Notes: generated by a model not told the origin, from the sequence alone. A stretch of 64,000 bases of DNA from a virus (IMGVR_UViG_3300005573_000006:1-64000); one strand, 5' to 3'. Numbered from the stretch's first letter, positions 3,934-61,996 are shown. A program made the numbers and translations.

Positions 3934-3984
3934 TGTGGACAACTACCTATTGCAATTTTTCTGATAATATGCTAAGATAAATAT
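3934..3984 (+). promoter_or_regulatory. sigma70 promoter with extended -10 and upstream DnaA-box-like site; leaderless transcript
   Basis: TGTGGACAA (3934-42), TTGCAA (3950-55), 17 nt, TGC-TAAGAT (3973-78), 6 nt, ATG 3985. Confidence 0.75.
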
Positions 3985-51801: not shown

Positions 51802-52203
51802 ATGAAAAAGAAAAATAACAAATTTTTACCAAAAGGTAAAAAAACCCTGGCGGTCGATCTTGATGGGACAATAGCAAAAATAAATCCACTTGCAGGTATA
51901 ACAATAGGTAGCCCAATCAAAGAGGCTATTCCAATATTGAAAAAATTTAAAAGGGCCGGTTGGCAAATAATTCTCTATACCGTTAGGCCAGATGAATGGG
52001 TATTGCGAAAATGGTGTGACAAAAACTTCCCCAAAATATTTGATGCTATAAATTGTAATCCTGAAGATGTAAGACAATGGGGGATAGTCAGTGCTAAACC
52101 AAAAGCAACCATCTATTTAGACGATTGTGCATGGCCCAATAACGGTTTTTTTGATTGGAAAAAATTTAAAGAAGATGCAATAAAAAACAAATGGATAAAA
52201 TAA
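51802..52203 (+). CDS. HAD-superfamily hydrolase
   Basis: AVDLDGTIA, ILYTVR, KP.A..YLDD. Confidence 0.85.
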   Translation: MKKKNNKFLPKGKKTLAVDLDGTIAKINPLAGITIGSPIKEAIPILKKFKRAGWQIILYTVRPDEWVLRKWCDKNFPKIFDAINCNPEDVRQWGIVSAKPKATIYLDDCAWPNNGFFDWKKFKEDAIKNKWIK

Positions 52204-52637
52204 AAACGAATACAATATATTCAGGACATGTAATTGATGTCCTGCGAACTTTTCCTGATGAAAGTATTGATATGGTAATTACTTCTCCGCCATATTGGGG
52301 ATTACGCGTATATAAGGCCGGAGGCGTTATCTGGGATGGAGATAAAGAATGTAATCATGAATGGAGTAACAATGTTCTAGCAGGAGGAAGGGCCGGACGT
52401 CCGTGGGGAGATACGGGACTACATAAGATACAACAACAATCATGGGACCAAAAACAACTTTCTTTTCAGCATAAAGAAACCATGTCGGCTTTTTGTACTA
52501 AATGCAATGCATGGATTGGAGAACTTGGACTTGAACCGAGTTTTGAAGATCAAATATTTGAAATAGAAATAATGGAACCAAAAAAAGATCTGACCAAAGA
52601 AGATTTAGACATGCTTAAAAAAGAGCTTGGTTTTTGA
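52191..52637 (+). CDS. DNA N4-C/N6-A methyltransferase, N-terminal part (catalytic motif IV)
   Basis: PDESIDMVITSPPYWGLR.Y ... GELGLEP. Confidence 0.9.
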   Translation: MDKIKTNTIYSGHVIDVLRTFPDESIDMVITSPPYWGLRVYKAGGVIWDGDKECNHEWSNNVLAGGRAGRPWGDTGLHKIQQQSWDQKQLSFQHKETMSAFCTKCNAWIGELGLEPSFEDQIFEIEIMEPKKDLTKEDLDMLKKELGF

Positions 52638-52662
52638 TAATCTTTGTGATCTGATAGATAGC

Positions 52663-53484
52663 ATGAGTATAAAAAACATAGTAGAAAACAAAAGAAGATG
52701 GAGTAACCCAGAATATAAAAAAAGAGTTGGGAATAAGATTTCTAATACCTTGCGCGGAAGAAAAATGTCGGATGATACTAAACAAAAAATATCTAAAAAA
52801 TTAAAGGGAAGAAAAACATGGAAAACAAGGATAAGAATCCTAAAAGGAAAGGACCATCCAAACTGGAAAGGAGGAACAACACCACAACGACAACAAGAAT
52901 ATGCCACAGAATCTTATAAACTATTTGTTAATACCGTATTACAAAGGGATGATTATACTTGTCAAGAATGCGGGGCAAAAAACGGAAATGGTTATAATGT
53001 CAGACTTAATGTTCATCATATAAAATCATATGCCGAAAATCCAACATTAAGATTCGATATTAATAATGGAATAACGTTATGTTTCATTTGTCATAATAAA
53101 ACTAAATCAAAAACGCCAAAACCCAGTAGGATTGATAAAATATTGATTAAAAAAATATGCCAGAAATGCGGTGAGGAGTTTCAAAAAAGAAATCCCCAAA
53201 AATACTGTGATAAGTGTAAAGAAACAATATGTGAATATTGTGGCGAAACATTTATATCAAGAAATAGTAAAAGATATCAAAAGTTTTGTTCCCGAAAATG
53301 CTATGGTCAATGGTGGTCAAAAAACAAAGTAAAAGAAAATAACCCCCACTGGAAAGGGTATATTGAAAAAGATTGTATAAATTGTCTAAAAAAAATTAAA
53401 AGAAGGGATAACGAAATTTTAACAAATTATAATAAAAGAAAGTTTTGTTGTCTAAAATGTGCATATGATTATAGAAAAAAGTAA
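52663..53484 (+). mobile_element. HNH homing endonuclease (NUMOD3-like repeats, HNH, Zn fingers) inserted in the methyltransferase
   Basis: KISNTLRGR..S..TKQKISK, HPNWKGG, RDDYTCQECG, VHHIK, NGITLC..CH, FCSRKC. Confidence 0.9.
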
Positions 53485-54541
53485 AATACCTCAACATTTA
53501 TTAAAATACTTTCAGTTAAAAGAAAAGAAAAAAATAGTTCGTCGTGGTTATATTTCACATCTTTGTGACATTTTTGATGAAATAAAAAGAGTGTTAACCA
53601 AAGATGGAACTTGTTGGGTAAACATAGGAGACACTTATCAGTCCGCACCAGTTAGCGGTAAACAAGGTGGTTTTTCTGGTAAAGCAGCTAAAAATAATCC
53701 AGAATATGCCGAAGCAATATTAGTAAAAAAACCAAAAAGCAGACTTAAAAATAAAACACTTTTACAAATACCGGCCCGGTTTGCTATAGAAATGTGTAAT
53801 CGTGGATGGATACTAAGAAACGATTTGATCTGGAAAAAACCAAATATTCTTCCGAGTTCTGTCAAAGATAGATTCACGGTTGATTATGAACATATTTTCT
53901 TCTTCGTAAAAAATGAAAAGTATTATTTTGAACAACAATTTGAACCGTATGCTACATCTACAAAAAATGATAAAAGATTTGAAATAGCCAAAGAAGGAAA
54001 ATATACCGGCGGGACAAATGTAAAAAAAGGATATGAAGAAAGCAAAGCACAAAATCCCATTGAGGTTAGAAACAATGTATTTAATGCCGGACTTGGACAA
54101 GGAAGAAATATGCGAAGCGTATGGACTATAACAACTAAAGGGTTTCGGGGAGCCCATTTTGCCGTATATCCAGAGAAACTTATAGAAACACCAATAAAAG
54201 CAGGTTGTCCAGAACTTAGATGTTTAACATGCGGAAAACCACGAAAAAAGATAATAACAAACGAACATGTTGGTGGAACACCATATTATCCGCAACATAA
54301 ATGGCAAAAAGAAAATAATGTTGGCCCACGTCCAAGAGATTATATTGCTAAAAAAGAATTTTGCGGATACACAGACTGCGGACATAATAACTGGCGTAAA
54401 GGAATAGTATTAGACCCGTTTTTTGGATCGGGAACCACTGGAGTTGTGGCAGAAAAACTAAATAGGGATTGGATAGGTATAGAACTAAATAAAGAATTTA
54501 TTAATATAGCAGAAAAAAGAATAAATGAAGAAAGAAGATAA
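53465..54541 (+). CDS. DNA methyltransferase, C-terminal part (SAM-binding motif I)
   Basis: YISHLCDIFDEIKRVL..DGTCWVNIGDTY, GWILRN.LIW.KPN..P.SVKDR, HFAVYPEKL, VLDPFFGSGTT, GIELN. Confidence 0.92.
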   Translation: MIIEKSKIPQHLLKYFQLKEKKKIVRRGYISHLCDIFDEIKRVLTKDGTCWVNIGDTYQSAPVSGKQGGFSGKAAKNNPEYAEAILVKKPKSRLKNKTLLQIPARFAIEMCNRGWILRNDLIWKKPNILPSSVKDRFTVDYEHIFFFVKNEKYYFEQQFEPYATSTKNDKRFEIAKEGKYTGGTNVKKGYEESKAQNPIEVRNNVFNAGLGQGRNMRSVWTITTKGFRGAHFAVYPEKLIETPIKAGCPELRCLTCGKPRKKIITNEHVGGTPYYPQHKWQKENNVGPRPRDYIAKKEFCGYTDCGHNNWRKGIVLDPFFGSGTTGVVAEKLNRDWIGIELNKEFINIAEKRINEERR

Positions 54542-54625: not shown

Positions 54626-55060
54626 ATGACAAAATTTAAAATATACCCAGAAAAAGGAAACAAACAATATTATTCAGTAATAATATTTGACAAAAAAGCT
54701 GATATGATAAAATATTCATGTGCCATAACAAAAAGACCGTTACATCTATTTGAGGCAGTAGCACATTCATATTACGCTTATTATAAAAGAAACAAAAAAT
54801 ATATATTGTCAAAGCAAATAGGAAGTATACTGTTTTATAAAAACGGATTTGGAGTAGGAACCGTTGCCCATGAAATAGCTCACGCAACCAATTACTATTT
54901 TAATAGAAAAAAGATAAAATTTAGAATTGGTAATGTTATAAAACCAACAAAACAATGGTTTAAATATGATGAAGCATACGCCCATATTTTAGGATATATG
55001 ATAAATCAGTTTTGGAATAAATATAATGGTAAAGTAAAAACTAAATCAGAAAAATATTAA
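54626..55060 (+). CDS. zincin-like HExxH protein
   Basis: VAHEIAHA ... EAYAH..GY. Confidence 0.6.
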   Translation: MTKFKIYPEKGNKQYYSVIIFDKKADMIKYSCAITKRPLHLFEAVAHSYYAYYKRNKKYILSKQIGSILFYKNGFGVGTVAHEIAHATNYYFNRKKIKFRIGNVIKPTKQWFKYDEAYAHILGYMINQFWNKYNGKVKTKSEKY

Positions 55061-58000
55061 TGAAATTTACACATTTACATGTTCACTCAATGTACTCATT
55101 GCTTGACGGACTACCAAGTCCGATTTCTTTAGTTGAAGAAACAAAAAAACTTGGAATGGATTCAATTGCCTTGACAGATCATGGAAATATGTATGGAGCA
55201 ATAGAATTTTACAAAGCCGCGAAAGCCAATGGTATAAAACCAATATTGGGTTGTGAAGTTTACATTACCAAAGATATGTTCAAAAAAAGCATTAAAGATG
55301 ATAACCAAATTTATCACTTAACATTATTGGCCATGGACAATAATGGATATCATAATCTAATTAAGTTAGTTAGCGAATCAAACATTCATGGATTTTATTA
55401 TAAACCAAGAATAGATTTTAATTTATTATCTAAATATAATGAAGGATTAATTTGTCTATCTGGATGTCTTGGAGGAGAATTGTCACAATTATTACTTTTA
55501 AAACAATATAGCGAAGCCGCTCAACTTGCCATAAAATATAAAAATCTATTTGGAGATAGATATTATATAGAAATAATGCGACACCCAAATAATAAAGATC
55601 AGTGCATTGTTTCACCAGAACTTATTAAACTATCATCAATGTTAGATATACCAATGGTAGCCACAACAGATTTACACTACCTTCACAAAAAAGATATCGA
55701 TACTCATGAAGTATTTTTAGCTATTAATACAGGAAAAAACCTAGATAATAAAGATAGGCTTTCTATGAAAGATAGTGACATATTTCTTGCTTCACCAGAA
55801 GAAATGATAAAAAAATTTAAAGACATACCCGAGGCAATAAATAATACACAAATAATTGCAGATAGATGTAATGTTGATATTAAACTTGGAGAAATAAAAC
55901 TACCAAAATTTAATGTGCCAAAAGGAGAGACGTATGATTCATATCTTAGAAAACTTTGTTTAAATAGCCCTAAAAACAAAAATGAATATTCAGATAGATT
56001 AGAATATGAACTAAAAATTATTGAAAAAACAAAGTTTGCATCATATTTACTAATTGTTTGGGATATTATAAAATGGGCAAAAGAACATGATATAATGGTT
56101 GGCCCAGGACGTGGTTCTGCCGCAGGTAGTATAATATGTTATCTTTTGGATATTACAAATATAGATCCGTTAAAATATGGATTATTATTTGAACGTTTTA
56201 TGAACCCAGATAGAATATCTATGCCAGATATAGATATGGATTTTGACGACACAAAAAGAGATGCGGTTATTAAATATGTGTCAGATAAATACGGACAAGA
56301 TAATGTCGCCCAAATTATCACATTTGGCACAATGTTTTCAAGATCTGCAATAAGGGATGCCGGTAGGGCAATGAAATATGATCTTAAAACGTGTGATAGA
56401 ATAGCCAAAATGATACCGTTCAATAGTTCATTAGCCGATTCGTTAAACAATGTTAAAGAACTAAAAAAAGAATATGAAGATCCAAAATCTAAAAAACTAA
56501 TAGACATGGCAATGAAACTAGAAGGAGTTGTTAGGCATGTCGGGAAACATGCTTGCGGAGTGATCATATCTGATAAACCAATAACCGATTATATGCCGAT
56601 TCAGTTATCAAAAGAAAAATCAGTAATGTCTCAATATGATATGAAGATTATTGAAGACCTGGGATTATTAAAAATGGATTTTCTTGGACTAAGAAACCTT
56701 TCGGTAATTTCTGAATGTCAGAAACTAATAAAAAAACAACTTGGTGAAGATGTAAATGTAAACAATATTCCCTTAAATGACAAATTAACATACAAACTAT
56801 TACAAGAAGCAAAAACAACTTCTGTGTTTCAACTTGAATCTGATGGAATGAAAAAATATCTAAAGAAATTAAAACCAACAAATATTGATGATATTTCGGT
56901 TCTTATAGCATTATACAGACCCGGTCCAATGAATTTAATACCAGAATATATAGCAAGAAAACACGGAGAAAAAACAATAACATATTTACATCCAAAACTT
57001 GAACCAATACTAAAAGACACTTACGGTATTATGATATACCAAGAACAACTTATTTCGGCCGTTCAAGCATTAGCAGGCATGACATTGGCACAAGCAGATG
57101 TTTTAAGAAAAGCTGTTGCCAAAAAAGACGCTAAACTTTTGAAACAACAAGAATCTAAATTCAAAGACGGATGTAAACAAAATAAAATAAGTAACAATGT
57201 ATCCAACACATTTTGGAACCTAATAGAACCGTTTATAGGATACGGATTTAATCGATCACATTCTACATCTTATGCCATAATAGGTTATCAAACAGCATAT
57301 TTAAAAGCAAATTATCCGGTTCAATATATGGTGGCAGAAATGAATTCCGATGACAAAATAGAAAGAATAACCGAATTAATGCCAGAACTTGAAAGTATTG
57401 GTATAAAAATAGCCCCTCCGGATATTAATATAAGCGAACAAAAATTTGTCGGAACCGGTAATAAGATATTATTTTCTTTATCGGCCATAAAAGGAATGGG
57501 CAAGAAGGCCATAGAAACAATAATAGAAGAAAGAAAAAATGGGCCATATAAATCTATAGATGATTTTATTTACAGACTAAACGGAACATCTATTACCAAA
57601 AAAACAATAGAAATCTTAGCAAAATCAGGGGCATTTGATACATTTGGTGAGTGGACTAAAAGAAATCAAATATCAAAGTCGGCAGAACAAATAGCAGAAA
57701 GTATAAAATTTAAATATAAAGATTTACTTCCACCAATAATCTATTCAAGTGTTAAAACTTCATGGAAACAAATGGTATCTTGGGAAAAAGAACTACTTGG
57801 ACTATATTTAACCACAAATCCGGCGCTTAATTATGCCGTAGAGATAAAAAAACATGGAACCATAGACATAAACAGAATATCTGAATATCAAAATAAAAAC
57901 ATCAAAATTGGCGGAGTAATTACCGATCTTAAAAAGATCATTCTAAAAAGTGGCAGAACCTTTTATAACTTTAGATTACAAGATACTACAGGATCAATAA

Positions 58001-58125
58001 ACTTATCAATATCAAGCGGTTTATATAATAAAAAACCGTTCAGCACAAACTCTGTAGTAATTTTATACGGTCAATATAAAGATAAATTTAAAATATTTAG
58101 TTGCGATCTAATAGATTCTTTTTAA
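55060..58125 (+). CDS. dnaE: DNA polymerase III alpha subunit (family C)
   Basis: HLHVHS.YSLLDG, ALTDHG, GPGRGSAAGS, LLFERF, MPDIDMDF, KMDFLGL, FQLES, GFNRSH, C-terminal OB fold. Confidence 0.98.
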   Translation: MKFTHLHVHSMYSLLDGLPSPISLVEETKKLGMDSIALTDHGNMYGAIEFYKAAKANGIKPILGCEVYITKDMFKKSIKDDNQIYHLTLLAMDNNGYHNLIKLVSESNIHGFYYKPRIDFNLLSKYNEGLICLSGCLGGELSQLLLLKQYSEAAQLAIKYKNLFGDRYYIEIMRHPNNKDQCIVSPELIKLSSMLDIPMVATTDLHYLHKKDIDTHEVFLAINTGKNLDNKDRLSMKDSDIFLASPEEMIKKFKDIPEAINNTQIIADRCNVDIKLGEIKLPKFNVPKGETYDSYLRKLCLNSPKNKNEYSDRLEYELKIIEKTKFASYLLIVWDIIKWAKEHDIMVGPGRGSAAGSIICYLLDITNIDPLKYGLLFERFMNPDRISMPDIDMDFDDTKRDAVIKYVSDKYGQDNVAQIITFGTMFSRSAIRDAGRAMKYDLKTCDRIAKMIPFNSSLADSLNNVKELKKEYEDPKSKKLIDMAMKLEGVVRHVGKHACGVIISDKPITDYMPIQLSKEKSVMSQYDMKIIEDLGLLKMDFLGLRNLSVISECQKLIKKQLGEDVNVNNIPLNDKLTYKLLQEAKTTSVFQLESDGMKKYLKKLKPTNIDDISVLIALYRPGPMNLIPEYIARKHGEKTITYLHPKLEPILKDTYGIMIYQEQLISAVQALAGMTLAQADVLRKAVAKKDAKLLKQQESKFKDGCKQNKISNNVSNTFWNLIEPFIGYGFNRSHSTSYAIIGYQTAYLKANYPVQYMVAEMNSDDKIERITELMPELESIGIKIAPPDINISEQKFVGTGNKILFSLSAIKGMGKKAIETIIEERKNGPYKSIDDFIYRLNGTSITKKTIEILAKSGAFDTFGEWTKRNQISKSAEQIAESIKFKYKDLLPPIIYSSVKTSWKQMVSWEKELLGLYLTTNPALNYAVEIKKHGTIDINRISEYQNKNIKIGGVITDLKKIILKSGRTFYNFRLQDTTGSINLSISSGLYNKKPFSTNSVVILYGQYKDKFKIFSCDLIDSF

Positions 58126-58208
58126 AAAAGGGGGACATTCTATAGCGGACTCAAGTGTCCTAGAATAATCCCCAAGGTTTCTTCCTGTCTCACGCGGGCG
58201 GAAGAATA
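58124..58208 (-). ncRNA. candidate ~85-nt small RNA with its own promoter and terminator
   Basis: TTGTAA (58237-42), 17 nt, TGA-TATAAT (58214-19); 5' hairpin TTCTTCC/GGAAGAA; long 3' hairpin followed by a U-tract; no plausible ORF. Confidence 0.65.
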
Positions 58209-58231
58209 CTTCTATTATATCATAAGCATCA

Positions 58232-58288
58232 TTAGTTTACAAGATCATTACCGTTTGGGCAAATAATCGGAAACTTATGAAATATCAT
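58232..58288 (-). CDS. 18-aa micropeptide MIFHKFPIICPNGNDLVN
   Basis: TTGATA-17-TGC-TATACT promoter (58305-33), AGGAGGAGG RBS, ATG. Confidence 0.5.
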   Translation of the reverse strand: MIFHKFPIICPNGNDLVN

Positions 58289-58454: not shown

Positions 58455-58685
58455 TTATCAACAAGTTGTCCACTTCCCCCGCTTGCATTGACTTCTTTTT
58501 TATGCTATGCTTTGGTTAGGCAATGTTTTGGTTTCTTTACAAAACTTTAAGATATGTTATAACAACAACACACTTTTTATATATGTCAATAAAAAGTTGT
58601 CCACTTGCTTTGGTTTTTACTTTTTGCTATAATTAGATTAGTAAAGTAAAGTTGTCCACATCTTTACTTTTAACAAAGATGTGGC
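58455..58685 (+). promoter_or_regulatory. early promoter cluster with four DnaA-box-like sites (possible origin)
   Basis: TTATCAACA 58455, TTGTCCACT 58466 and 58597, TTGTCCACA 58652; promoters TTGCAT-17-TATGCT (58483-58511) and TTGCTT-17-TATAAT (58605-33). Confidence 0.65.
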
Positions 58686-58727
58686 GATGTTCATTAAAAA
58701 CTCCATAAGCGGCGATGGGGTTATAAT

Positions 58728-59087
58728 ATGAGAACCATTAAAACAGCATTAAGATCGGGTTTTGTCAAGACGCAAGCAACAAGAGTCAGAAGCGGTTTTG
58801 TTAGGGATATCCAAGATCTAGGTTTAGAGGTTGGAGGTGATCCTTGTGTTTTGACTGAAGAAGAGTTTCGAAGTTATGGCTTTTCTGAACGGACTATTAA
58901 GAATGGCCCAAGATATCTATTGAACAATAAAGCAAGCGAGAAAAGAGGCGAGTTTTATGCGGTAGCTCGTGGAGTTGCTACCGGTGAATTAGCTGAAGAG
59001 TTGCAAGTTCCTGAAAATACGCCGGTTATACAAATCGCTAGAGTTGCAACAAAAAAAGAGATCGGGACGCATTTTTTAACCGAGTAG
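58728..59087 (+). CDS. first early gene, hypothetical
   Basis: 119 aa downstream of the promoter cluster; internal RSGFV duplication. Confidence 0.75.
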   Translation: MRTIKTALRSGFVKTQATRVRSGFVRDIQDLGLEVGGDPCVLTEEEFRSYGFSERTIKNGPRYLLNNKASEKRGEFYAVARGVATGELAEELQVPENTPVIQIARVATKKEIGTHFLTE

Positions 59088-59147
59088 ATATTCCGTAGCT
59101 ATGAATTAAACGCCGCTATTCGTAGCTACTAGAATGTTTATTCTATT

Positions 59148-59176
59148 AACTCATCGGAGGTCGGGATGAGTTTTTG
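59148..59176 (+). terminator. intrinsic terminator
   Basis: AACTCATC-GGAGGTCGG-GATGAGTT-TTTG. Confidence 0.65.
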
Positions 59177-59194
59177 AACCAGTAAATTAAAAAC

Positions 59195-59359
59195 ATGGTC
59201 AAAATTGCTATTGAAAAATACAGTAAAAACTTATACCGTGGAATTGGAATTGTAAATGGATTACCGATTATAATTTTTGGAAGCAGTTTCATGAATGTCA
59301 TTACAAAAGCCTTGTATGAATATATGAAAAGACGAGCATTTTTTACTGAAGAATGCTAG
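59195..59359 (+). CDS. small hypothetical protein (54 aa)
   Basis: MVKIAIEKYSKNLYRGIG...; AATTAAAAC-ATG leader. Confidence 0.5.
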   Translation: MVKIAIEKYSKNLYRGIGIVNGLPIIIFGSSFMNVITKALYEYMKRRAFFTEEC

Positions 59360-59367
59360 TATAAATT

Positions 59368-59395
59368 GAAGGATCTTATTAAAGGTCCTTCTTTT
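59368..59395 (+). terminator. intrinsic terminator
   Basis: GAAGGATCTT-ATTA-AAGGTCCTTC-TTTT. Confidence 0.65.
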
Positions 59396-59400
59396 ATTAT

Positions 59401-59589
59401 ATGATCAAAATAAATAAGAAAATCGCACTTTTTGATAAACCAAAAGACATTTTAGAAGTTATTATGATCAAAAGAAAATATAGATTAAAAGAAATAAAAA
59501 AAGAAGGAAATATAATTACAAAAACATATATGAAGGGCCGGAGATATTGGAAAATAAGCTATCCAGATAACTATATTGGTCAAATATGA
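59401..59589 (+). CDS. small basic hypothetical protein
   Basis: ORF track. Confidence 0.5.
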   Translation: MIKINKKIALFDKPKDILEVIMIKRKYRLKEIKKEGNIITKTYMKGRRYWKISYPDNYIGQI

Positions 59590-59692
59590 AGATGATTATA
59601 GAATTAACCGCACTTTTGCGGAGATTTAACCATTATTTGTATATATTATTCCATCAAAAAGACATATAGAAGAAAATAAGAAGGGGGGTATT

Positions 59693-59845
59693 ATGAATAA
59701 AAAGAAGAAGAAAAATAGACAGTATATAGCATGTATTTGGTGCGGAAAAGACATAAATAAGAAATATGCCAAATACTATTCAGATAAATGTAGAAGTGAA
59801 GCGTTGGGACAAAAGTTAGAAGGGAGGTGTTATTATGAGCAATAG
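59693..59845 (+). CDS. small Cys-containing protein
   Basis: AAGGGGGT RBS; CIWCGK...SDKC. Confidence 0.5.
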   Translation: MNKKKKKNRQYIACIWCGKDINKKYAKYYSDKCRSEALGQKLEGRCYYEQ

Positions 59846-60086
59846 AGATAAAAGACCAAAAAGATCAAAATATATTAAGTGCCCGCTTTGCGGGGAGAAG
59901 TTAGACAGTATAATGGAATGGGTAAATACCACGATCGGATATGAAAGAGATTTAAAGACCGGAGATATTCTTCATACAAGAGAAGGAGATTATAGCGATT
60001 TTGAGGCTTATAGTTGCCCGGAATGCGGAGAAGATTTAGATGAAAAAACATGTAAAAAGATAAATAAAATGTTATGGGGTATTTAG
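59835..60086 (+). CDS. Zn-ribbon protein
   Basis: GGAGGTG RBS; CPLCG...CPECG. Confidence 0.7.
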   Translation: MSNRDKRPKRSKYIKCPLCGEKLDSIMEWVNTTIGYERDLKTGDILHTREGDYSDFEAYSCPECGEDLDEKTCKKINKMLWGI

Positions 60087-60100
60087 AAAGGAGGTGAAAT

Positions 60101-60295
60101 ATGAAAAAGCCAAAAGCCGTATTTGTAAAACAAAATAATGGAGGTTCGTATAAGTTAGAAATATATCTTGTGGAGAATGCCACGGATGAACAAAATGCAT
60201 GGGTCGATGCACAAGGAAAAATAGTATATGATTATGAATTAAATGGCGTTAAAGCCGATCTAAAAAAAGACGGATTTAATGTTGTTGTAAAATGA
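60101..60295 (+). CDS. hypothetical protein
   Basis: AAAGGAGGTG RBS. Confidence 0.7.
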   Translation: MKKPKAVFVKQNNGGSYKLEIYLVENATDEQNAWVDAQGKIVYDYELNGVKADLKKDGFNVVVK

Positions 60296-60468
60296 GACAA
60301 TTAACATCCGCACAAAAGAAGTTATTAGACAAAACATTGAAAAATAATCCAGAAATAAGAGAATGTGATGATTTACCAGATGAAGTTTGGGATATGATAG
60401 TAGAGCTTAATGATACCGAGATATTATATGATGAGGTTAATAAATATATCAGACAAAAAGATTTATAA
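60292..60468 (+). CDS. small hypothetical protein (58 aa)
   Basis: MRQLTSAQKKLL...NDTEILYDEVNKYI. Confidence 0.55.
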   Translation: MRQLTSAQKKLLDKTLKNNPEIRECDDLPDEVWDMIVELNDTEILYDEVNKYIRQKDL

Positions 60469-60518
60469 ATGAACTTTGATAACTGAATACATTTTAAGGA
60501 ATATAGGGGCAAAATAAA

Positions 60519-60713
60519 ATGAGCAAAATATATTGTATTGAGCTAAGCAAGGATGAAGAATTAATGGCAGAAGATATGGGGTTAGAAGATTTTATAGAAA
60601 CAGATGAAGATGAAAGAATCTTCTGCCGTAAATGCGGGAAGGATATAACAGATGAAGGATTATCAGAAGATATTTGCCGCAAATGTGGGCTAGAAATGGG
60701 GGTTTATGACTAA
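60519..60713 (+). CDS. acidic Zn-finger protein
   Basis: CRKC..CRKC. Confidence 0.6.
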   Translation: MSKIYCIELSKDEELMAEDMGLEDFIETDEDERIFCRKCGKDITDEGLSEDICRKCGLEMGVYD

Positions 60714-60930
60714 AAAAGACTTTATTAAAATTGCGGAGATTATTAAGAGTATAATTGGACAACTTGGAAGAGTAAATGTTAAGACCGAAGATGGAAATAC
60801 TATTGAAGATATATCCGAGTTTATTATTGATGAGTTTGCTTATGGTTTAGAAGATACAAATGAAAGGTTTGATGAAAATAAGTTCAGAAAATATATCTAT
60901 AAAGATAATAAGTATTACGAAGGTCAATAA
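60706..60930 (+). CDS. small phage protein
   Basis: MTKKDFIKIAEII...N.RFDENKF. Confidence 0.7.
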   Translation: MTKKDFIKIAEIIKSIIGQLGRVNVKTEDGNTIEDISEFIIDEFAYGLEDTNERFDENKFRKYIYKDNKYYEGQ

Positions 60931-61159
60931 TATGGTTTAATAGTTCCTATACTTTAAGATGTATTCAGTAATTAGTGTTTATTATGAAGATATTATTTAT
61001 ATTTTTAGTTATACTATCCGCCATTTTTGTGTGGACATTCTATAATATATTTTGGGTTTCTGATATTCGGAATATATGTTTGCCAAGAATGGAAGATTGT
61101 AGTAAATAAATATGAAAAACCAAAAAAAGACAAATAAACATAAAAACCAGCGAAAAAAA

Positions 61160-61270
61160 ATGACAGAAGAGTTTTATGAGGGCAAAGAAACTTTATGCGG
61201 AAATTGTGGACGAATAGCAACATGGAAGTATGGAGATATTCATAGATGTAATAAATGTATGGGACTATGA
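61160..61270 (+). CDS. 36-aa Zn-ribbon peptide
   Basis: CGNCG...RCNKC; ATGA overlap with the next gene. Confidence 0.5.
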   Translation: MTEEFYEGKETLCGNCGRIATWKYGDIHRCNKCMGL

Positions 61271-61458
61271 CACATAAAAAAGAATGGACAATAAATATAA
61301 TACTAATTATTTTATCATTTATAATAGTTTTTGGGTTTCTCAAATGGCAAATAGAAGAAAATAAGGGATTTTGTTTAAAGATTATGAGCGGATATTTTAT
61401 GTCAACTAATAAAGATTTAGAAGAGTACCAAAAATATATGAAATATTATAATAAATAG
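61267..61458 (+). CDS. small membrane protein
   Basis: Single N-terminal TM helix. Confidence 0.55.
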   Translation: MTHKKEWTINIILIILSFIIVFGFLKWQIEENKGFCLKIMSGYFMSTNKDLEEYQKYMKYYNK

Positions 61459-61472
61459 AAAGGAGGTGAAAT

Positions 61473-61646
61473 ATGAAAAAATATAGTGTTTCTTGGAGTG
61501 AAAAACATACATTGCCGGGTATAGAAGCGAATTCTCCAGAAGAGGCAATAGAAAAAGTCCAAAACGGAGAAATAACGGAAGAGTCCGAGAATGGAGATGT
61601 TATTGAGCTAGTTGATGGGCCCGAGGCCGTAGAAGAAGGTATATAA
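61473..61646 (+). CDS. small acidic protein (57 aa)
   Basis: AAAGGAGGTG RBS; IEANSPEEAIEKV. Confidence 0.65.
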   Translation: MKKYSVSWSEKHTLPGIEANSPEEAIEKVQNGEITEESENGDVIELVDGPEAVEEGI

Positions 61647-61676
61647 TAACACAAGCGGCCATGTGTATTTTTACAA

Positions 61677-61931
61677 ATGAAAACAGTCCGTTTTAAGATA
61701 GCAGATGTATTTGAAGTAGAAGTAGAAAACGATGCAACACAAGACGAAATAGACGCAGCAGTTGATGCGGAACTAAAAAAATTAGCAGAAGCCCCATTTT
61801 TTCTGGAAAATGCAGAAGTTGAGTTTGTAGACGAAGAAGAAAATGAAGAAGAAAATTACGAAGATTTATCAGTCGAAGACCTAGATGAAAATTCCTCAGA
61901 AGAGAATTTAGAAGAAGATACAGAGGAATAA
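61677..61931 (+). CDS. highly acidic early protein
   Basis: 34 of 84 residues are Asp/Glu. Confidence 0.75.
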   Translation: MKTVRFKIADVFEVEVENDATQDEIDAAVDAELKKLAEAPFFLENAEVEFVDEEENEEENYEDLSVEDLDENSSEENLEEDTEE

Positions 61932-61996
61932 ATTACCGTGAGTTGCCATGATATTTGGCCGCATGTCGTGGCAACAATTCGGTTATTTATTATAAT

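Follow-up and report, generated by a model that had tools for sequence, protein, structure and literature searches.

Two small plus-strand genes of an uncultured tailed phage from a hot spring are each framed by a GC-rich heptamer just ahead of the start codon and by a long hairpin with the stop codon in its base, and seven bases in the apical loop of this hairpin are complementary to the heptamer. The genes lie in IMGVR_UViG_3300005573_000006:1-64000, the stretch of DNA analysed here and called the window throughout; it comprises the first 64 kb of a 91,307-base-pair (bp) viral record with direct terminal repeats. Each gene, together with its two flanking elements, will be referred to as a unit (Table 1). 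When unit 1 is compared with its counterpart in a related contig, the two loops are found to be changed on both sides, with all seven Watson-Crick pairs retained. Such a pattern supports the view that the loop complementarity is kept by selection, and that the two loops would touch each other in the sense RNA, linking the gene's start with its end.

Table 1. Elements of the two units and the signals accompanying them in the window (nt, nucleotides; aa, amino acids)
Feature	Position	Strand	Description
Promoter-like site P1	58483-58511	+	TTGCAT, 17 nt, TATGCT with TG extension; just 3' of a GTTGTCCAC box; sequence reading
Promoter-like site P2	58605-58633	+	TTGCTT, 17 nt, TATAAT with TG extension; GTTGTCCAC box ahead; sequence reading
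Leader hairpin A	58656-58684	+	10-bp stem CCACATCTTT/AAAGATGTGG, 5' of the kissing hairpin; -14.7 kcal/mol, z -3.5
Unit 1 5' hairpin	58699-58722	+	8 bp including one G.U, 8-nt loop AAGCGGCG; kissing heptamer AGCGGCG at 58708-58714
Unit 1 gene	58728-59087	+	119 aa
Unit 1 3' composite hairpin	59082-59143	+	contains stop codon TAG (59085-59087); U-rich tail after it
Canonical terminator-like hairpin	59148-59177	+	8-bp stem, then T run; 18 nt past the unit 1 3' hairpin
Unit 2 5' element	61649-61666	+	weak 5-bp stem ACACA/TGTGT; kissing heptamer GCGGCCA at 61655-61661
Unit 2 gene	61677-61931	+	84 aa, very acidic; from the list of open reading frames
Unit 2 3' composite hairpin	61927-61991	+	contains stop codon TAA (61929-61931); U-rich tail after it

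Structure of unit 1 and conservation of its loops

The four hairpins and both loop pairings (AGCGGCG/CGCCGCT in unit 1, GCGGCCA/TGGCCGC in unit 2) had been pointed out in an earlier, sequence-only reading of the window. Upon re-reading of the sequence, the coordinates of the former proved correct and the complementarity of the latter was confirmed. In unit 1, the 5' hairpin ends 5 nt ahead of the ATG at 58728 and has a folding energy of -10.9 kcal/mol (z -3.2 against shuffled controls). The 3' hairpin (-27.4 kcal/mol, z -7.1 against such controls) possesses a 12-bp upper stem at 59095-59129, closed by the 11-nt loop TAAACGCCGCT (59107-59117), in which the kissing heptamer CGCCGCT occupies positions 59111-59117. 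Complementarity between the two elements is confined to the seven loop bases and does not extend beyond them. Because it ends at the loop borders, it points to a kissing helix, not to an extended duplex or a terminal inverted repeat. For the 7-bp kissing helix, energies of about -13 kcal/mol (37 °C) and about -7 kcal/mol (70 °C) were calculated. When the whole presumed message of unit 1 is folded, both hairpins are kept at 37 and 60 °C and the heptamers are predicted to be unpaired (0.95 for the 5' loop and 0.98 for the 3' loop at 37 °C, 0.78-0.97 at 60 °C).

The protein encoded by unit 1 has three relatives in a large protein collection, with homologues 79% (P0002) and 68% (L059) identical. 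A metagenome scan gave two contigs, one with the whole of gene 1 and its 3' flank (L059) and one with the 5' part (L060). Both share synteny with the window; at the end of the DnaE-type polymerase gene, which lies upstream of unit 1, their DNA is 70-74% identical to it, with 74% for the DnaE region of L059. In L059, the 5' hairpin, with stem arms AACATTAT and ATAATGTT and loop AAACAGCG, stands 7 nt ahead of the aligned ATG, and there is a composite 3' hairpin containing the stop codon, in which a 12-bp upper stem is closed by the 11-nt loop TAAACGCTGTT. The kissing sequences read AACAGCG/CGCTGTT in L059 and AGCGGCG/CGCCGCT in the window, i.e. two pairs that are G-C in the window are A-U in L059, with the change made on both sides. 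The idea of loop complementarity preserved through compensatory changes, already voiced in the sequence-only reading, is thereby borne out: L059 retains seven of seven Watson-Crick pairs by means of two double changes. The five loop bases outside the kissing helix are the same in the window and L059. The AU-richer helix of L059 is weaker (-9 kcal/mol at 37 °C, -4 kcal/mol at 70 °C).

The remaining helices behave in the same manner. In the alignment, three pairs of the 5' stem (compared with L059 and L060), two pairs of the kissing helix and six pairs of the 3' upper stem (compared with L059) are changed on both sides, and in each of the three helices 100% of the cells are paired. If the partners are slid by 1-3 columns, pairing falls to 32-53%. 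We enumerated all possible sets of two substitutions in one loop and two in the other, and only 0.8% of them keep seven Watson-Crick pairs (3% if transitions alone are allowed). The 5' loop of the window can pair with the 3' loop of L059 via two G.U pairs (-8.6 kcal/mol), while the reverse mix yields -3.9 kcal/mol and no pairing; with one mix viable through G.U, a stepwise route is what would be expected if selection acts on RNA. Further, every stem contains G.U pairs on the plus strand where the other strand would give A.C, which indicates that the folded molecule is the sense RNA. The 5' hairpin is the same in L059 and L060 though the spacer and the N-terminal codons differ, and it appears to be under purifying selection. 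Its position, 5-7 nt before the start codon, is kept in three sequences, and all three units, that of L059 included, have their stop codon inside the base of the 3' hairpin.

Unit 2 and its kinship to unit 1

In unit 2, the 5' element is located 15 nt ahead of the ATG at 61677. The 3' hairpin reaches -28.2 kcal/mol (z -5.5); its upper stem spans 61942-61975, and the loop TTGGCCGC (61955-61962) harbors the kissing heptamer TGGCCGC at 61956-61962.

The sequence-only reading regarded the stems of the two units as unrelated in sequence and the arrangement as seen twice. The stems are in fact related. The 5' cores (CATAAGCGGCGATG and CACAAGCGGCCATG) agree at 12 of 14 bases (CAYAAGCGGCSATG). The 3' upper stems, GTAGCTATGA-AT/AT-TCGTAGCTAC versus GTTGCCATGATAT/ATGTCGTGGCAAC, are equal at 10 of 12 bases per arm, and the differences, as read by eye, are compensatory. 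A covariance model constructed from unit 1 and L059 only returns the hairpin of unit 2 as its second-best match in the window (23.3 bits, E 0.0024), and the next match, at 14.8 bits, is noise. A pair next to the common GCGGC:GCCGC core reads G:C in unit 1 but C:G in unit 2, and the helix is moved by one base. Units 1 and 2 represent paralogous copies of a single two-part module around two unrelated genes; what looked like two cases is one module copied. A search with the 3'-hairpin model brought up no additional member elsewhere in the genome or among 59 other loci.

A 12-mer of the unit 2 5' element, CACAAGCGGCCA, has a third exact copy at genome positions 64202-64213 (L073 202-213), 202 nt past the end of the window. 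This copy is situated 2.2 kb downstream, inside a 356-aa coding region (codons P-Q-A-A-T), with no hairpin around it. Its chance expectation, a rough estimate based on composition, is about 0.0007. The copy may represent a further target of the unit 2 3' loop.

Expectation by chance

Every simple genomic hairpin with an energy of -4 kcal/mol or better was taken, and the loops of pairs 60-1500 nt apart on the plus strand were compared. Of the approximately 2,500 pairs obtained from the whole 91,307-bp genome, unit 1 is the best loop-loop match. For either 3' loop, the plus strand of the genome has 8-10 occurrences of heptamers able to pair with it; one would fall by chance into the 40-nt region before the start of the hairpin's own gene with a probability of about 0.004, and both units have one. 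The 3' hairpins rank among the most stable structures of the plus strand.

In a set of 228 strong stop-adjacent hairpins, taken from 57 distant DnaE loci and from this genome, there were six start-region matches against 3.6 expected, and the only convincing ones were the three from this lineage. A loop-pair scan of the distant DnaE loci produced weak GC-rich noise only.

Possible role of the module and alternative explanations

We favour, with moderate confidence, an explanation in which the start region and the stop-codon hairpin are tied together by an intramolecular contact between their loops, through which translation or stability of the message would be tuned. The module would consist of a hairpin just 5' of the start codon, perhaps reduced in unit 2 to an exposed GC-rich heptamer, and of a long hairpin with the stop codon in its base. 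Their apical loops would form a 7-bp Watson-Crick kissing helix in cis and join the ends of the coding region. The module would then have been duplicated around two unrelated small genes, with the loop letters altered on both sides, leading to partly distinct "addresses". Because the 5' hairpin lies within the ribosome footprint, 5-7 nt before the start, its stabilisation by the kiss should lower initiation. By holding the start-abutting hairpin shut, the contact might therefore reduce translation initiation, shield the message from nucleases, or both. Since the stop codon is placed in the base of the 3' hairpin, any ribosome that terminates there has to melt this base, and the contact could be released by this melting or by nuclease trimming of the 3' hairpin.

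A more far-reaching version of the idea, which we regard as rather unlikely, is that of a portable, address-coded "closed-loop" tag that pseudo-circularises the messages of small genes and couples termination at the stop codon to re-initiation or decay. If true, such a tag could be copied around any small gene and would be the prokaryotic equivalent of mRNA circularisation. Should the contact control translation, decay or read-through, it would in any case constitute a compact programmable device in which seven letters serve as the address. It would offer phages a way to time or limit the expression of small genes, and synthetic biology a useful part.

Several points speak against the intramolecular contact. 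The 5' stem of unit 2 is absent from the minimum-energy fold (z 0.04), and its GCGGCC is predicted to pair locally with GGCCGU at 61626-61631, inside the upstream gene. Thus, from the original claim that hairpins bracket both genes, the two hairpins of unit 1 and the strong 3' hairpin of unit 2 stand, and the 5' hairpin of unit 2 is marginal. The folding predictions would rather describe unit 2 as a strong 3' hairpin with an exposed or alternately paired heptamer and no clear 5' hairpin. Further, the covariation covers two lineages only, and the two units of the window, being paralogues, are not independent observations, which makes the independent evidence thin. Cross-pairs between the units reach -10 to -11 kcal/mol versus -13 to -14 kcal/mol for cognate pairs; as they are nearly as stable, the "addresses" are not orthogonal. 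The third copy of CACAAGCGGCCA sits in a coding region without a partner hairpin of its own. The stretch is present in two hot-spring metagenome DNA runs only, which are probably its source, and in no listed RNA run; the location of both hairpins on one molecule is a presumption from promoters and terminators recognised by consensus. Finally, sequence alone separates neither cis from trans action nor control of translation from control of stability or termination.

The last distinction leads to an alternative that we consider unlikely, namely that the contact acts on transcription. The 3' hairpin with its U-rich tail would then be an intrinsic terminator or attenuator, and the kiss would set the read-through into downstream genes, which are indeed encoded on the same strand. 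All three 3' hairpins are composite stems directly followed by a tract with 7 U in 10 nt. However, each tract is interrupted and partly paired with A-rich sequence around the stop codon, a consensus terminator scan flagged neither hairpin, and unit 1 has its separate canonical terminator 18 nt on. The loop-loop helix is compatible with an intact terminator hairpin, so an effect on termination is hard to see, and a pure termination device has no need for the fixed position of the 5' partner relative to the start codon (5-7 nt in three sequences). The distinction between cis and trans gives rise to another alternative: the stable 3' hairpin could outlive the message or be cut from it, and kiss the start-proximal loops of other copies and of the paralogous unit. 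It would then behave as a small antisense RNA exerting feedback or cross-regulation, comparable to loop-loop control by CopA/CopT or of the RNAIII type. The exceptional stability of the 3' hairpins among plus-strand structures and the strength of the cross-pairs (-10 to -11 kcal/mol) would suit such a fragment, and so would the target 12-mer inside the downstream gene at genome position 64202, which a closed loop in cis leaves unexplained. Nevertheless, each loop finds its best partner on its own gene, the change in L059 is matched within the unit, and neither a promoter nor a processing site that would yield a separate RNA is evident, which leaves us to judge this possibility distinctly improbable.

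The two remaining explanations are less probable still. At loop-loop complexes of Staphylococcus aureus RNAIII, RNase III shortens the life of messages. The 5' stem, the kissing helix and the 3' upper stem, if stacked coaxially (8 + 7 + 12 bp), would sum to about 27 bp, i.e. more than two helical turns, and could be cut by this enzyme with the same outcome. RNase III also appears among the search terms of the paper on pairing between the 5' and 3' untranslated regions of icaR (PMC3868564). A stack of this kind could just as well protect the RNA, and we deem cleavage by RNase III very unlikely. The least credence we give to the sites functioning in DNA, as inverted protein-binding or recombination sites that flank mobile cassettes, or to plain coincidence. 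Modules shared around unrelated genes do resemble cassettes, and GCGGC is contained in all four sites, on one strand or the other. Yet the inverted repeat amounts to 7 nt without any extension, the stem ends are GTT...AAC, the reverse of the order in integron attC sites, and family scans revealed no integrase or transposase nearby. A protein site would require a matching change of specificity in L059. Moreover, the heptamers are placed exactly in the loops of hairpins with covarying, G.U-using stems, which points to RNA. As for coincidence, the chance estimate of about 0.004 per unit stands against it.

Comparison with known systems

To our knowledge, end-to-end pairing in bacterial messages is known from few cases, all of them linear duplexes at the ribosome-binding or cleavage site. 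The sequence-only reading knew of no such case in a phage, and our literature searches found no description in a phage mRNA either. In plant RNA viruses, 3' cap-independent translation elements engage in long-distance kissing loops with 5' hairpins, an analogy already drawn in the sequence-only reading. The resemblance is clear: covarying apical loops of a 5' and a 3' hairpin join the ends of a coding RNA, and in our case the covariation consists of the two double-sided pair changes that set L059 apart from the window and of a G:C to C:G difference between the units. The viral elements, however, deliver eukaryotic initiation factors, for which there is no bacterial counterpart, whereas the phage elements belong to the transcript of a double-stranded DNA phage and their 3' hairpin overlaps the stop codon.

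In mRNAs of hok-type type I toxins, pairing of the 5' and 3' ends keeps the message closed and inert until its 3' end is processed. The phage units differ in that the pairing is loop-loop instead of end-to-end, and they lack both a small hydrophobic toxin and a Sok-like antisense gene. Their products are a 119-aa protein, alpha/beta according to a structural model, and an 84-aa acidic protein; a promoter consensus scan revealed no antisense promoter over the leaders. GC-rich 7-nt loops initiate specific RNA-RNA contacts in ColE1 RNAI/RNAII, R1 CopA/CopT, P4 CI and P1/P7 c4 as well. The partners there are fully complementary antisense or processed leader RNAs acting in trans, whereas in the phage units only the loops match and both are on the sense strand of one gene. 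The guanidine-IV (mepA) riboswitch likewise contains a kissing loop between two hairpins by a terminator, but it is ligand-dependent, compact and situated upstream of its gene. The units have no match in Rfam, the family of this riboswitch included: with Rfam 15, nothing in the window reached the gathering score, and the sub-threshold hits were eukaryotic chance hits only, with E up to 1.

Closest among bacterial messages are icaR of S. aureus (PMC3868564) and hbs of Bacillus subtilis (PMC5737220), in which sequence after the stop codon pairs with the message's own leader and alters translation or nuclease access. In hbs, a 14-bp interaction of 5' and 3' regions is reported to modulate cleavage by RNase Y (PMC5737220). 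Both form a linear duplex, which in icaR covers the Shine-Dalgarno sequence, whereas the phage units would form a 7-bp loop-loop helix between intact hairpins. The phage module is also duplicated and portable, and leaves the start codon and the Shine-Dalgarno region uncovered. Its 3' complementarity reaches only the apical loop 5-15 nt upstream of the ATG, so pairing with the ribosome-binding site or a cleavage site, as in icaR and hbs, is not seen here.

Transcription context and encoded proteins

Unit 1 is probably a transcription unit of its own, as suggested by two extended -10 promoter-like sites conserved in L060, the leader hairpin and the terminator-like hairpin. The P1 block is nearly identical in L060, and the layout of P2 is kept there as TTGCAA-17-TATACT; from P2, the message of unit 1 would start near 58640. 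The stem of leader hairpin A is kept in L060 and missing from L059, which has an open reading frame inserted at this place. The terminator-like hairpin at 59148-59177 is not conserved in L059. Unit 2, on the other hand, lacks its own promoter and lies inside an operon, at the end of a tight run of small genes. The description of both transcripts as early mRNAs was an assumption, and unit 2 does not form an mRNA by itself that would begin with the 5' element. The same reading noted that both genes lack a Shine-Dalgarno sequence. This is true and at the same time not distinctive, since about 13 of 22 listed neighbouring starts are also devoid of it; of the neighbouring starts, a few of them carry a perfect GGAGG.

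The unit 1 protein has no significant Pfam or PHROG family, and ESM Atlas returned nothing significant. Its AlphaFold model is alpha/beta (predicted local distance difference test score, pLDDT, 67) and has no significant match in PDB by Foldseek. The unit 2 protein belongs to no Pfam or PHROG family.

The open reading frame inserted in L059 (2091-2303, 70 aa) lies between the promoter region and the gene 1 hairpin and is extra relative to both the window and L060. From its stop codon, a long imperfect hairpin extends (L059 2299-2366), with only a 6-nt AU-rich loop match upstream that is probably due to chance.

Exact GTTGTCCAC boxes, similar to DnaA boxes, occur at 58465-58473, 58596-58604 and 58651-58659, and also at 3935-3943 on the minus strand. 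Two of them are directly 5' of the -35 element of the conserved promoter-like sites, in a layout that is the same in L060. They could mark an origin or an activator site.

Genome, further searches and minor observations

The genome has a GC content of about 33%. The minus strand encodes terminase, portal and tail proteins; the plus strand encodes a recombinase, an exonuclease and a DNA methyltransferase, the frame of which is apparently broken by an HNH endonuclease gene (52191-54541, PHROG hits at 52627-53484 and 53459-54541). No phage RNA polymerase was recognised among the encoded proteins. The DnaE-type polymerase gene occupies 55060-58125, and both units are located 3' of it, in a region that opens with 600 bp of intergenic sequence, after which many small genes follow on the plus strand.

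Gene 1 has no relatives in IMG/VR contigs, GenBank phages or GTDB genomes, and the nearest DnaE polymerase in the same three collections is 47% identical or less. Pattern searches of IMG/VR for the 5' hairpin and for a conserved small RNA (see below) gave nothing. Contigs from the sequencing runs, at 80% likeness, contained no variant across the hairpins.

The small RNA, a stand-alone candidate on the minus strand at 58110-58212, is encoded convergently with the polymerase gene. An extended -10 promoter at about 58213-58245 precedes a hairpin and then a bulged terminator hairpin followed by a U run. The loop of the first hairpin, CCGCCCGCGUGAGA, is invariant in the window, L059 and L060, and its stem covaries. 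No target of this RNA was found. As a third partner of the kissing loops it was rejected, because its loop is invariant while the kissing loops change, and because the best duplexes are bulged. A 19-mer of the small RNA has 12 matches in unrelated GTDB assemblies, which we discarded since about 9 are estimated by chance in 596 billion bases. Another candidate, a hairpin in the coding region at 58960-58983 whose loop could pair with the 5' arm of the 5' hairpin, was taken as chance; according to an alignment read by eye, it is not conserved in L059.

Beyond the window, at genome positions 73380-73430 (L073 9380-9430), a long AT-rich hairpin carries a GC-rich 13-nt loop with a GGCCGCCGGC core. 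It is placed within a 240-nt non-coding stretch before a 77-aa gene, and no complementary loop was found nearby. Between the two units, an identical 25-nt block, TAGAAAGGAGGTGAAATATGAAAAA, occurs at 60084-60108 and 61457-61481, ahead of two different small genes. It comprises a stop codon, a perfect Shine-Dalgarno site, a start codon and the first codons, and looks like a copied ribosome-binding module.

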